This document shows, piece after piece, positions 2,821-20,000 of a stretch of DNA of 20,000 nt. Within the stretch, counting starts at the first letter, position 1. Every line of letters starts with the position of its first letter. A program made the position numbers and the translations under genes. The stretch covers positions 235,941 through 255,940 of the forward strand of contig KZ537960.1 in assembly GCA_000934665.2 (NCBI GenBank). Direction: 5' to 3'. The stretch is from Catajapyx aquilonaris (lineage: Eukaryota). The notes below the pieces were generated by a model. The model was not told the origin of the DNA. It saw only the letters and a program-made list of their open reading frames with translations, and did no database searches.

Positions 2821-3363
2821 ATGTATCACTGTTGGGACCCCATCAGTATCATGTTTAAGTGGCCATAATTGCATGACCCCTTATTAAAGCGCGCCAGACG
2901 TAACTTAGAAATTCTATTACCGCCATAATTACAGGGGCAATTTGCTGATTCCGGCAGTTTCGCCCCCCGTTAATAATCCGCACAACTTCTCAGAGCGATG
3001 AGCCTGTGTAAATCACCGAAGGGTGCTGCTCTGGTAGAGAGAGGCTGGCCCATAGGGTCAGCAACTATCTCATTCTTCCCTAATCAATTCACGTTGGGGT
3101 CAGTACCAGCTTCTTTACGGGGACTAAGCCTCGTTTAACCTGTTCTAACACCTGCTTAAGCCGTGTTTGGTAGGGCTTACAACAGGCTTCAATTGAAAGG
3201 TACGTGCCATACAGCGTTGTCATTTTACTTAATTAAAACAAGCAATATATTGTTAGAATATTGTTCATACAACTACACCTACTTAATTACCTGTACACAG
3301 TCCTGCGCCCCATAGGCTGTGGGGGCAAGGACAACACACATTTTCGAAGCGAGTGGAAACTGA

Positions 3364-3406
3364 CCTAACCTAACCTAACCTAACCTTACCTAACCTACCT
3401 AACCTA
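3364..3406 (-). repeat. Interstitial (TTAGG)n arthropod telomere-type repeat, about 9 imperfect units
   Basis: + strand reads CCTAA x4, CCTTA, CCTAA, CCTA, CCTAA, CCTA(G). Confidence 0.9.
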
Positions 3407-4301
3407 GGCTGAGAAAAATGGACTTTTGTAAAGCCCTACATAACGGAATTGTGGGGACCAGCTGAACCAGGCGTTTTTGCTGTACCCACAATTTGGAGAC
3501 TGACCCCAGAGCCACAGTCAAAACACCAACCTAGGTCCCCAGACCCTATATGCGAGACCGGAACAAAGGTACAGTGGTGCTTCATTGCCCTCAATCTTTC
3601 ACCACTCCAGAAACATCAGTGTGCAGACGGCAGCACCTCAACCTGTTTGAGGACTAGCCAAAATGGCCAGTGTGGTCCTTTCTCATTTAGAAGTCCACCC
3701 GCGGCCAAGTCCAGCAATTGGACTAACCCTCTACCTCAGGGGGAAAAAAATTAGAGCTCCATCTAATGTCCTTTTCATGGACAGCATAACAGTTAAGGAC
3801 AGTCTAAAAAAATGGGGTCCTCCTTTTCATTAACTCCCTGGATGTCGTTTTACTGAAAAAGGATGGGGGATGGAGGAGGAACCGGATTTTCTCACCCCCC
3901 CCCCCCCCTTCCCACCCCAGCAAACCCAGTTTCTGCTGCTGACTTGCAGACACCGCCTTTTTGATCCGCACTGTAGCGACAAAACCTCCGCCGATCTGCA
4001 TAATTGTTTAAGGGTTGCCGAGTTTGCAGCACTGTAGACAGGAATTAGGGTTTTGGGTGGAGGGGGGGGAGCAGGGTAGAATGGGGAGGGGGGGAGTTAT
4101 TAATTCTGGTCTCCATGGCGACTGCTCCCGTGGAGAGATCGAGCGAGCCAGCTAGCGAACACCCCATGGTATCTTCCTGTTTCGCCGAATCTTCCCGGGT
4201 CGAATTTGGGCGAAATGAGCGATCCCTGAATGTGGCGCTGCGCCGCATCGGACGGCGCGGCGCGTCCTCGTGGATTCGGATTGCCTATCTGGCAGGAGTG
4301 T

Positions 4302-11627: not shown

Positions 11628-11958
11628 CAATAGTCCTATTGTCAAGTAATTCACTAGTCAATTTAAAATGAACCGAATGGGCCACATTACTATCTTCTCG
11701 AATTACAGTAGTAGCCAGTCCGGCGTGGAATTCCGTCCGCGACATAGCCCTTTGAAGAGTAAGCCATTACTAACGCCATAGCCTTTGCAACATATCCCAA
11801 CCGCAGACTTGCGAAAGCCGAAAGGAAATCTATAACGCTTTGTCTGCACGTCACATAAAGCTGCGTAACTCGCCTCACATACATCAAAAATGGGTGTTTG
11901 GGTCAAGTTGACATCCTGTGGTTTCTTGCAAATGTCAGCCAACACCTTCCATTTGCAG

Positions 11959-12571
11959 GTTATGGTCGGGTCGGGCCCAGATCGGCATTGGGCAAGGCCA
12001 TCACTGTGGTCTACGCGGTGCTGGGAATTCCTTTGATGCTTCTGTACCTGTCATCAGTCGGCGCCCTTTTGGCACGCTGCGCCAGGCTGTTCTGCTCCCG
12101 GGCCTGCTTGTCCCGACGCTCGCGACAACGACGCCCGGACGTCAAGAGCGCCCTGGCAGCAGCCGCTGCAGCATCCCGACCCGGCAATGAACCTTTCTAC
12201 CTGCGCGCATCGTTGCACAACAGCTTACCGGATGGGGACATCAGCAGGGAGAAGCTGGCTCTAGATGATGGTGACCTTAAGGACAGCTGCGGAACACCAG
12301 TCACCATGACGCCGTCGACGCCTCTCGACGCCTCCAGACGGATGCTGGCCGTGGCCTCTGCGGCTGCGGCGGCCAGTTCATCCGGATCCCTGCTGCTGCC
12401 GGCCGTGGTCTGCGCCGCTGCCATGGCCGGCTACCTGCTTCTTGGAGCGGTGGTGCTGGCTCGGTGGGAAGCCTGGGACTTCCTAGAACGAGCCTACTTT
12501 TGCTTCATGGCTCTCAGCACCATTGGATTTGGAGACCTGCTGCCAGGGGACTTGCCATTGCCTCCCACCAG
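11959..12571 (+). CDS. K2P (two-pore-domain, TWK/KCNK-like) potassium channel, internal exon: end of P1, M2, M2-M3 loop, M3, P2
   Basis: Acceptor ccttccatttgcAG at 11957-11958 splits the Gly codon (phase 1). Translation reads (G)[34 protein letters not shown] (P1 GYG plus M2 with the GIP motif), then a hydrophobic M3, then [28 protein letters not shown] (P2 filter TIGFGD). Donor AG|GTAAAG at 12571/12572. The ORF-track N-terminus (11898-11957) is intronic. Confidence 0.95.
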
Positions 12572-12631
12572 GTAAAGCACTCCACTAAAGATTTTTTGGG
12601 GACATACAGAGGTCGTGTTTTCTCACTACAG
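12572..12631 (+). other. 60-nt phase-2 GT-AG intron of the K2P gene
   Basis: GTAAAG...gttttctcactacAG. Splicing joins AG+G (Arg) and links PPT-R-QVLEG in frame, removing the TAA at 12573-12575. Confidence 0.9.
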
Positions 12632-12968
12632 GCAAGTACTGGAGGGCAGCCACAACATGAGCACCATGGTGATACGCGTGCCGATGGGTGGCCCCAGCAC
12701 ACCCGGATCCGGAAGTGCGGAGTGGTTTTGTTCCTTCTACATCCTCCTGGGCATGGCCCTCACCGCCATGTGCTTCAACATCTGCCACGAAGAGCTGGCC
12801 CATCGGGCTGCCAGTGCGGCGGCAGCTTCTTCAGCAGCCGCAGCAGCCGCCGCCGCCGCCGCAGCCGCCGCGGCCCAGCAGTCCTCCAGAATGCTGGCCG
12901 CCACCGCCCGAGGCCCTCCACCTCCTCCGCCCATGGTCACCCGGCGTCCAGACGACTCCTACTCCTGA
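12632..12968 (+). CDS. K2P potassium channel, last coding exon: P2-M4 linker, M4, Ala/Pro-rich C-tail
   Basis: WFCSFYILLGMALTAMCFNICHEEL is a typical K2P M4 helix. A 14-Ala tract lies at 12834-12875. TGA at 12966-12968. Confidence 0.92.
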
Positions 12969-13070
12969 CCCATGCGCAACCTGACCCAAGAGACCCTCTG
13001 TCCACCCCTAGTCTCCGACGTATCGCCCCGAAGACATCTCAATGACGACGAGGCCAACACCGGGGTGTGA
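12969..13070 (+). other. Candidate stop-codon readthrough extension (33 aa) of the K2P channel
   Basis: TGA-C context, then in frame PMRNLTQETLCPPLVSDVSPRRHLNDDEANTGV and TGA at 13068-13070. About 61% GC by hand count versus about 41% in the next 100 nt. Confidence 0.45.
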
Positions 13071-14037
13071 CTTTCAACGGACAAATCTGTACGAATTTAT
13101 TACATTTATACTTGAGCGACTCCATCCGTCTGATTCGCTCAACATTACCACGACGTTGTCAACTAACTGGTGGCGGAACTTCTTGGATGTGAAATTTTTC
13201 CTACTTTAATATTCGCCAACTACCTCCCAGTTGCTTGTGGTGAGTACAAATCGCCGTGAGACACCATCCTTGATCCCTACCGGCCGGCCACAGTCGCAGA
13301 GGCGCCACCTATATACACCTTACTGGGAACATCCCTGGAAGACAGGCCGACCTGAGGGCTTAAGGAAAGGGATTAGGCCACGCAACGGTTAGCAATGAGG
13401 TAGCCGGGTTTTGCGATATGCGGTCGCACCCCTTCCGAAACCTCCCGGGAATGATGAGATGAGATGAGATTGGATGAAGCCAACCTAATTCCTCCTCTTC
13501 CCCTTCTGGAAATTGCGGATTCGATTGTGGCGAGCAGGATGATGAGAGGAAGGGTCGATACTCGAAGACGCTTCCTTGGTAGAGGTGGTTGTAGTGGTAG
13601 TGGTGTGGTGGTGGTCTTCTGCTTCCCCAGCACGATCAATGTCAGTGAGAAAGAAACGGTGAACTAAGAGGAGGATAGGGAGGGTTGGTTGTTGACGTCC
13701 TCCTCAATCACTATCTTGAAACCTGCCGACGGGTACTCTTTCCGACCACATGAATCAGCTCTGTCAAACGGAGACAGCCGCCCGCCAGAAGACTTATACC
13801 AGACGCCTAATGTCACTTTGACTTTGCTCATGTGTTGGTGCTGGATGTGAATGAGTGACTGCAATGCGACAGGCATGTGAATGAATGAGTGCGTCAGATG
13901 CGTCAGGATAATCGCCTCGTCGTGGATTTCATGTCTTGTCCTATTTCTTTTCTGGTGCTTTCGTTTTTCACGGTGCAGTGTTTTTTGAGATTCGTTTCAT
14001 TTTCTTGTTGTACGTCTTATACCAGTAGTTATCGTCC

Positions 14038-14105
14038 AATAAAATCATTAGATACAGATGGTTGTGTGGAATAAAAATGTGTCACTTGTACTTGTGATAT
14101 TTGTG
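14038..14105 (+). terminator. Probable polyadenylation signals of the K2P gene
   Basis: AATAAA at 14038-14043 and 14070-14075, followed by GT/T-rich sequence (gtgtcacttgtacttgtgatatttgtg) and preceded by T-rich UTR-like sequence. Confidence 0.6.
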
Positions 14106-14120
14106 AGCGTTGACCTCCTC

Positions 14121-14194
14121 AGGCCTGGAGCCGGGCCGTCTCACGACTAACTAGAAAAGAGCAGGTCCACACCTAGTGGCCTGCCCTCTAGTGA
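14121..14194 (+). mobile_element. One end of the GGCCGTCTCACGACTA TIR family
   Basis: Exact GGCCGTCTCACGACTAA at 14134-14150, shared with 19177-19193. Downstream aggtcca..ctag..cctgccNtctaNtg is also shared. No partner end was found. Confidence 0.65.
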
Positions 14195-14689
14195 AGAGTG
14201 TCACATATTGAATGGTTGATTCTGGTTGCGAAGCACGTGTGACAATCAGGTACTACCCTATTTACGTCAACAACTCTGGGCAGTTCTATACATTTGAAGC
14301 AATCATCAGGCAACATGTGGATTTAACGTCGCCACAGGCCAGCACGTTACGACGTTATGGTCCTACATAATTATTCAGGCCAGGATTCCCTCGGGGAAAG
14401 TGGGTGACTGTACAGGACAGTACAGTACATCATCAGTAATAAATATATAACGCCGTGAAGTGCCTCTGGCGTGCAAATCAAATTCACATGATGAGGCAGT
14501 GAGTAACCAAGCGATAAGAAATAAATTATGCGATTATCCAACCACGTTACTTTCATTATTAAAGCTCTCATTAGAAACAGTGTTTCTTCTAAAAAAAACT
14601 TGGCATTAAAGAGAATATTTGATCCAGGGCAAGTTTCGCACAGTGCATACATCGTCATGTATTTAAGTAACGTCGGAAGCCATTAGTCA

Positions 14690-19308: not shown

Positions 19309-19410
19309 GACGGAGGAGTTGACTAGTGGTCATTAGCCAGTCACCTGTCACATTAATTCTTGCCAATAAACAACATTAACAGCTTCAGTCTACCTGTCCA
19401 ATGTCCAGTG

Positions 19411-19491
19411 TGGGGCGGGAGGGAGGGAGAGAGAGGAGAGAGAAAGAGAGAGAAGAAAGACGGGAGACAAGACAGAGAGGGGGAAAGAGGG
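19411..19491 (+). repeat. GA-rich low-complexity (polypurine) tract
   Basis: ggggcgggagggagggagagagaggagagagaaagagagagaagaaaga... Confidence 0.85.
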
Positions 19492-19688
19492 GTTTTGAAG
19501 GTGAACACTATTCAATGAGCNCCCAATCGTCAGTGTTTCTTTCTTTTCATTGGTTTTGCACTGTCATGGAGTTTTATGCAGAGAAAAACATGTCAATTAT
19601 TCTTTCAAGTCATTATTAGCCCAACTTGAAGTGATGGCGCCCTTTCTTTACGTCAAGTACATGTTGGAGAGAGTGTCAGTATCGAGGT

Positions 19689-19752
19689 GGCGCAGTGGTC
19701 CAGTGGCTAAGGCGCTATCTTCGTAACCTGAAGGTTGAAGGATCGAATCCTG
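19689..19752 (+). pseudogene. tRNA-Thr(CGT)-like pseudogene or tRNA-derived SINE head
   Basis: GGCGCAGTGGTCCAGTGGCTAAGGCG...TT-CGT-AA...GGATCGAATCC. A box at 19696-19706, loop triplet CGT at 19722-19724, B box at 19740-19750. The anticodon and acceptor stems do not pair. T5 at 19771-19775. Confidence 0.7.
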
Positions 19753-19888
19753 AAAGAAAGACATCGTTTCTTTTTATCGTTATGGACCTTTTTCGCTGTT
19801 ACTTCATCTCTCATTTCACATTTATTTCTCTTTGAAGTGCATCTGGTAAATAGGCTAGACCCTTCCAACACCCACACTCTCGTTGCAG

Positions 19889-19960
19889 CATAGCGTGGCT
19901 GTGTGGTAACGCATCAGACTCTCAATCGGGAGATGTGGGTTCAAATCCCGAATCTCCACG
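19889..19960 (+). pseudogene. Second tRNA-like pseudogene or SINE head (loop triplet CTC)
   Basis: A box TGGCTGTGTGG at 19896-19906, tcaga-CTCTCAA-tcggg imperfect anticodon arm, B box GGTTCAAATCC at 19938-19948. No intact acceptor stem. Confidence 0.65.
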
Positions 19961-20000
19961 GTTGATGAGTCAGGAAAAAAATTTGCAGCCGTCATCTCTG

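Follow-up and report, generated by a model that had tools for sequence, protein, structure and literature searches.

Programmed stop-codon readthrough is, we are fairly confident, the best explanation for an open frame of 33 codons that lies directly behind the first stop codon of a potassium channel gene of Catajapyx aquilonaris. On its plus strand the window, by which is meant the whole stretch of 20,000 nucleotides that was analysed, carries the final two coding exons of a two-pore K+ (K2P) channel gene of the arthropod TRESK/KCNK18-like type, and the 33-codon extension behind the first TGA reads as a compact copy of the long C-terminal tail found in orthologues. Readthrough had been proposed for this locus in an earlier note, made from the letters of the window, and the comparisons described here support that proposal through conservation of TGA-C in 7/7 orthologous DNA loci, a coding pattern of substitution in termite-like relatives, and the presence in the window of both of the boxes that characterise the orthologous tails.

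Membership in the K2P family is indicated by a match to Pfam Ion_trans_2 (PF07885) over two stretches of the penultimate exon (E = 1.3e-18), together with a GYG at the start of that exon and the K2P filter sequence TIGFGD at pore 2. The part of the channel that lies within the window is its C-terminal ~315 residues; an upstream exon for M1 and pore 1 was sought across the window and was not found. The named relatives closest to the channel are insect potassium channel subfamily K member 18 and TWiK-family proteins, with a top identity among them of 39%, to a Schistocerca protein. The acceptor of the penultimate exon (cag/g at 11957-8, where here and below a slash within letters marks a junction) falls within the first G codon of the pore-1 GYG; the donor of the exon is ag/gtaaag at 12571/2. 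The 60-nt intron that follows contains TAA in frame at 12573, the reading frame resumes at 12632, and orthologues align on either side of the intron (tblastn with P0001). The features of the locus, all on the plus strand, are the following.

Positions 11959 to 12571, plus strand: penultimate coding exon, with pore-1 G-Y-G, M2, a long cytoplasmic loop, M3 and pore 2 (TIGFGD).
Positions 12572 to 12631, plus strand: intron between pore 2 and M4, 60 nt, with gt..ag ends.
Positions 12632 to 12965, plus strand: canonical part of the last exon, with M4 (WFCSFYILLGMALTAMCFN) and an Ala/Pro-rich short tail that ends ...RRPDDSYS.
Positions 12966 to 12969, plus strand: first stop TGA with C at +4, a leaky context.
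Positions 12969 to 13067, plus strand: in-frame extension of 33 codons, PMRNLTQETLCPPLVSDVSPRRHLNDDEANTGV.
Positions 12975 to 12998, plus strand: conserved box 1, RNLTQETL (family consensus RNxT[EQ]ETL), from a motif HMM.
Positions 13044 to 13067, plus strand: conserved box 2, DDEANTGV, at the extreme end (family pattern acidic-acidic-x-N-T-x-hydrophobic-stop), from a PSSM.
Positions 13068 to 13070, plus strand: second stop TGA, with C at 13071, read from the sequence.
Positions 13071 to 14075, plus strand: 3'UTR, still within the terminal exon, with AATAAA at 14038 and 14070 and with colinear X5 contigs.

The Ala/Ser/Pro-rich short tail includes 14 Ala codons at 12816-12879, unlike the tails of other orders, and this run was skipped as a repeat in read mapping.

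What the earlier note had read from the letters was reproduced on measurement. The TGA at 12966-12968 is followed by C at 12969 and by exactly 33 open codons (12969-13067), as claimed, and the second TGA-C is present with its C at 13071. The fall in GC, which had been put at about 61% to about 41%, was measured as 0.62 in the extension and 0.40 in the next 99 nt. By codon position the GC of the extension is 0.67/0.45/0.73, that of the coding exons being 0.64/0.57-0.65/0.69-0.73, and the sequence after the second stop is AT-richer and without codon periodicity. The reservation that such an open frame could arise by chance was well placed: 33 open codons have a probability of 0.20-0.36 when the 3'UTR, or the extension itself, is modelled as a first-order Markov chain. 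The proposed hairpin is not supported. Its two arms, cacccc at 13003-13008 and ggggtg at 13062-13067, are present and are paired in the minimum-energy fold, but that fold is not unusually stable, at -23.8 kcal/mol where shuffles average -23.74 (z = -0.02, 110 nt) and 89 of 200 shuffles folding at least as well; a stimulatory RNA structure, sought by folding against shuffles over 110 nt and again over 201 nt (z = -0.50), was not found. Because the open frame is within chance expectation and the fold is no better than those of shuffles, the question of readthrough would stay undecided from the window alone.

Comparison with orthologous proteins carries the argument further. Annotated proteins of a short-tail class, drawn from many orders, end soon after M4 in an acidic-aromatic-x-S motif, with endings such as DEDPYS, DPFALTS, DPYNLTS, DPFYMNS, DYPPTS, DPYSTSS and YYVPAS, to be set beside the DDSYS of the window gene. 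Other models form a long-tail class that reads RNxTEETL, then (G)VYTLPEE, then an acidic end ...NTEM. The junctions between M4 and the long tail vary by model (QYY/RNPTEETL, HEE/DTPTS, QYY/DYVNHELV, RHM/KNTNLYQ, EIR/TPTSV and AINS/IITEENICL), and their mutual inconsistency points to the behaviour of gene predictors at an in-frame stop; the long-isoform junctions of mosquitoes, flies and wasps are likely to be annotation artefacts around a readthrough stop. Inconsistent long isoforms were noted in P0005, P0067, P0071, P0090, P0104, P0105, P0108, P0130 and P0136, from mosquitoes, flies and a wasp, and in A. gambiae two separate models, AGAP013077 and AGAP003031, divide the gene between them.

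Another set of sequences runs across the stop without any junction. Three of the 11 members of one cluster of collection ORFs (P0029, P0059 and P0062) read ...DYPPAS-W-...EENTVM-W-, and the other 8 end at DYPPAS. A W stands at the same junction in P0036, P0043, P0052 and P0100; like the first three, these come from further lineages, and the W-containing ORFs run on into the conserved tail motifs, with the exception of P0043. In P0100 the W occupies the exact position of a genuine TGA in a close relative, the dipteran-like DNA locus L007 described below. We infer that the W in these ORFs is a TGA called under a code in which TGA is Trp. A distant relative, P0033, aligns by BLASTP across the stop, with TRRPDDSYS-x-PM...RNLTQETL of the window gene set against TRRPVENSYS-V-HY...RNYTEETL, and it has a sense codon (V) at the position of the window gene's TGA. 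A protein search with the tail plus extension among 1.84 billion representatives gave 39 matches, 38 of them confined to M4 and the following Ala-rich stretch, and a word-index search with residues 98-145 gave no match at E <= 10 among proteins of 79-254 aa. The match to P0053 (query residues 118-136) was set aside, as this looks like an unrelated repeat protein.

The resemblance between the window's extension and the orthologous long tails resides in two boxes. An HMM derived from ten orthologous segments that surround RNxTxETL, none of them from the window, gives the extension the top score among 1287 six-frame ORF pieces, 14.6 bits (E = 0.0014), the runner-up scoring 6.7 bits (E = 0.42). 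A PSSM of the eight C-terminal residues, derived from 14 long tails of orthologues without the window or near-duplicates, ranks DDEANTGV first among 1287 ORF ends at 10.6 bits, the next scoring 7.1, and like the HMM it was defined after the resemblance had been noticed. This PSSM also omits P0033, P0043, P0052 and P0090, whose ends are possibly incomplete or divergent; family members scored by leave-one-out span -4.1 to 19.5, and the orthologue end closest to DDEANTGV is LDEANTEM of P0134. An HMM of the whole long tail matches the extension weakly (E = 1.7) and in the box 1 region only. The mid-tail and the VYTLPEE box of other orders were sought in the window by regular expression, tblastn and HMM and are absent from it, and a downstream exon for VYTLPEE...NTEM, sought in the window by regex scans, tblastn and HMM, was not found. 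The extension has 33 codons here; termite-like relatives have 112, and 136 are listed for the probable fly orthologue. Deep motif conservation is the basis on which purifying selection would be assigned to the window's 99 nt. A reading of GGG/GTGTGA at 13062-13070 as a splice donor, in which NTGV would be the start of an internal NTGVYTLPEE box, was considered and dropped, because colinearity of the X5 contigs extends to 14035, there are poly(A) signals beyond that point, at 14038 and 14070, and the C-terminal box gives the better fit.

Seven insect-like loci, L001-L007, were recovered as DNA when metagenome contigs were scanned with a beetle orthologue as query. They amount to 5 distinct sequences from about three lineages; the same kind of scan with the window's last exon as query found no relative. 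TGA-C stands at the homologous place, at the end of the short tail, in every one of the seven, and an in-frame extension holding RNxT[EQ]ETL follows it in all of them. The stop contexts are cct TGA caa, tct TGA cat (five loci) and tcc TGA cgt, and that of the window is tcc TGA ccc. The earlier note had named frameshifts or stops within the extension and loss of TGA-C in relatives as observations that would speak against it, and none of these is seen in the relatives' loci. Five loci, L002-L006, are termite-like and comprise three distinct sequences, with a short tail that matches the end of a Cryptotermes protein and an extension of 112 codons that ends ...VPGVYTVQEEDEEAEDNTDM-TGA, stops being frequent thereafter. 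The comparison of L002 with L004 divides the termite-like gene into three segments.

Upstream coding sequence, 600 nt: differences 5/4/31 by codon position, with 31 synonymous and 8 non-synonymous codon changes.
Extension, 336 nt: differences 2/2/20 by codon position (24 in total), with 18 synonymous and 6 non-synonymous codons and no gaps.
After the second stop, 396 nt: differences 13/23/15 by codon position, with 8 gap columns.

The share of third-position differences in the L002/L004 extension has a binomial P of 6.6e-7, and the remaining two termite-like pairs have the same substitution pattern. The termite-like extension evolves as coding sequence, and the pattern decays past the second stop. 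A coding signature that ends at the second stop is thus found in the termite-like relatives, and for the window itself the conservation is at the level of motifs.

The dipteran-like loci have a further feature, an intron inside the extension, located right after ...ETL(V/I)(S/T)G at L001:911-990 and L007:819-1078, that of L001 being probable. In L007 the extension reads RYEKNTNLYQRNPTEETLITG, then comes an in-frame intron, then TPTS.... The L007 DNA shows mosquito models of the form RHM/KNTNLYQ... to be splicing around an in-frame stop, and the dipteran-like long form would need readthrough followed by downstream splicing. Taken over all of these loci, the arrangement is ancient and common to insect orders.

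Transcript-type evidence comes from run X5, a second sample of unrecorded library type, in the form of contigs, which drop rare isoforms. One X5 contig of 249 nt fits the window over only 143 nt, at 11958-12100, its remainder lying elsewhere, and its end at the predicted 11958/9 acceptor is consistent with a spliced transcript. Two others, at 12901-13534 and 13531-14035, are colinear with the genome over both stops with no joint and with one difference, at 13170, so that stop 1, the extension, stop 2 and ~1 kb of 3'UTR are carried in one colinear stretch. The contig at 12901-13534 is identical to the reference at 12966-12969 and shows the TGA.

Elsewhere in the window, X5 contigs also lie at 308-564, 878-1118 and 1287-1550, far upstream of the channel exons and without a convincing ORF; they may belong to another transcript, a UTR or a transposon. 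The segments 3336-4002 and 19344-20000 are very high-copy, with summed X1 contig depths of ~17,700 and ~7,400 against ~33 elsewhere, and the clipped ends of X1 contigs at ~3360-3400 are TTAGG-type (CCTAA)n telomere-like repeats, in keeping with an arthropod-like genome. A single N occurs at window position 19521.

The most serious competitor to readthrough, though an unlikely one, is that alternative splicing delivers the conserved tail, from a donor inside the last exon to an acceptor past the stop, with the TGA a plain terminator of the short isoform. Models from Dendroctonus and Odynerus, a beetle and a wasp, read EIVHR/N.TEET..., with M4 joined directly to N-x-TEET, the An. albimanus model reads KEIR/TPTSV, and introns do occur within the extension of the dipteran loci (L007 and probably L001). 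The window itself offers an in-frame splice pair, with a donor A/GTGCGG at 12813/4 and an acceptor at 12990/1, 177 nt apart. However, box 1 starts two codons past the stop and there is no AG between 12966 and 12988, so that no canonical acceptor can skip the TGA and yet keep RNLTQ; the first AG past the stop, at 12989-90, lies inside box 1, and a canonical splice there drops RNLTQ, which is nevertheless conserved. L007 is likewise without an AG between the stop and RN, and the candidate AG before RN in termite-like loci is lost in L005 and L006, where CGA replaces AGA. The splice junctions of the models, moreover, differ among species, the sole contig across the site is colinear (though contigs drop rare forms), and the C at +4 is conserved though it has no role in splicing. 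In some lineages, beetles and wasps, splicing may supply the tail.

Considerably less probable is that translation truly ends at the stop and that the extension is either open by chance or a relic in decay. Its length is well within what the Markov models allow, other orders have a far longer extension with middle boxes that are missing here, and P0033 is without a stop at the homologous place. Against this, the two terminal boxes have survived intact, each with first rank among 1287, the gene shares its open frame and its TGA-C with the seven DNA loci, and GC by codon position is coding-like and falls right after stop 2. Least credible of all, and hardly to be entertained, is that the UGA is recoded in some other manner, by selenocysteine insertion or by A-to-I editing that turns UGA into UGG. 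Selenoprotein genes, too, are marked by a TGA in frame with conserved coding sequence behind it, and editing is common in insect neuronal ion-channel mRNAs, but neither a SECIS nor any other Rfam family is found at E <= 1 in 12600-14300, save two far-below-threshold chance matches, no orthologue has Cys at the UGA position (P0033 has V), TGA is what the X5 contig reads, an A with a G before it is disfavoured by ADAR, and neither selenocysteine nor editing explains the conserved +4 C.

Programmed readthrough is the reading that accommodates these observations, and TGA-C is the best-known leaky context (PMC5100048, PMC13278127). The majority of ribosomes would terminate at the UGA at 12966 and yield a channel ending ...DDSYS, and a fraction would decode the UGA-C with a near-cognate tRNA, translate 33 more codons and terminate at the UGA at 13068. 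The second isoform so produced would have a cytoplasmic C-terminus with an RNxT[EQ]ETL box and an acidic N-T-x-hydrophobic-COOH end, and this tail would recruit a partner, a PDZ-type scaffold being one candidate. That ribosomes read through in Catajapyx aquilonaris itself, and how frequently they would do so, we infer.

The PDZ-type C-terminus proposed in the earlier note is a match of pattern, and one that dipteran orthologues do not share. The end -N-T-G-V-stop has T at -2 and a hydrophobic last residue, so that -T-G-V-COOH resembles class I PDZ ligands ([S/T]-x-hydrophobic-COOH) by pattern only, and ends of the form [ST]x[VLI] have a base rate of 50/1287 among window ORF ends. Orthologue tails end in a hydrophobic residue (M, V or I) behind an acidic run in 14/14 cases, with T at -2 in 8 of the 14 and N-T-x-M ends likewise in 8 of the 14, but the dipteran ends PAM, ERV and DRI fall outside class I. 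A free-end docking motif, PDZ-type or other, is plausible.

Readthrough in insects is well described (Jungreis et al. 2016, PMC5100048; Dunn et al. 2013, PMC3840789), and among ancient readthrough candidates the stop is TGA in 74-76% and the 3' base is C in 55-63% (PMC5100048). The window gene resembles such insect readthrough genes in its TGA with a 3' C, its conserved stop, a downstream coding signature and the expectation that the gene is neuronal. The nearest known case is CG42594 of Drosophila melanogaster (FBtr0345704), one of ten fly K2P genes (PMC8020223), which Supplementary Table T3 of the Makarova et al. 2026 preprint places in tier 1 with a score of 12 (PMC13278127). Its row in that table gives a TGA stop, an ORF of 2718 nt, an extension of 408 nt, Conserved_SCR = 1 and support from 3/3 Ribo-seq models, with a stop identity of 1.0 across flies and an extension protein identity of 0.92 (PMC13278127). 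CG42594 is probably the orthologue of the window gene, judged from lengths, because Drosophila family members have 857-915 aa against its 905-codon ORF and modelled tails (P0104) fit ~125-136 codons. The two genes are alike in being K2P genes with a canonical TGA stop and a conserved extension, and they differ in that the extension of CG42594 has 408 nt (136 codons) and ends in TAA, whereas that of the window gene has 99 nt and ends in TGA. The QSGQSG repeat of CG42594 (PMC2809761) was tried as a check on orthology and proved uninformative, with a partial match in 1 of 10 fly orthologues.

None of the ten fly K2P names, nor AGAP013077 or AGAP003031, occurs in one searchable supplement table of Jungreis 2016 (PMC5100048), and K2P names are absent from two small supplement files of Dunn 2013, of 8,584 characters (PMC3840789). 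Split, stop-skipping mosquito models would hide the gene from a scan anchored on annotated stops. CG42340 was at one point taken by us to be a K2P gene. It is present in the Jungreis 2016 table with TGA-C and 236 codons (PMC5100048), and was dropped as a K2P readthrough gene, as it is not in the fly K2P list (PMC8020223) and has no channel link in the literature examined.

Readthrough of such genes has itself already been described, and what is added here is the depth of its conservation and the minimal two-box tail. One may go further, tentatively and with more doubt than conviction, and suppose a translational switch that spans the insects, possibly the pancrustaceans, and dates back hundreds of millions of years, of which the 33-residue tail is a natural minimal version, reduced to two essential elements and with an end that docks a PDZ-type or similar scaffold, the neuronal readthrough rate setting the fraction of leak channels at a membrane site. 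The short and long forms of this channel are probably mis-annotated in many genomes, as mosquito, fly and wasp models splice around the stop inconsistently, and collection entries with W at the stop amount to ready-made readthrough translations that could be mined for readthrough candidates. For the channel family, the comparisons suggest that readthrough of this leak channel would be an old conserved feature of the gene and not a peculiarity of flies. With its 33 residues the natural tail singles out two boxes, each of eight residues, as the conserved and presumably functional elements, and the function of the tail thereby becomes directly testable.
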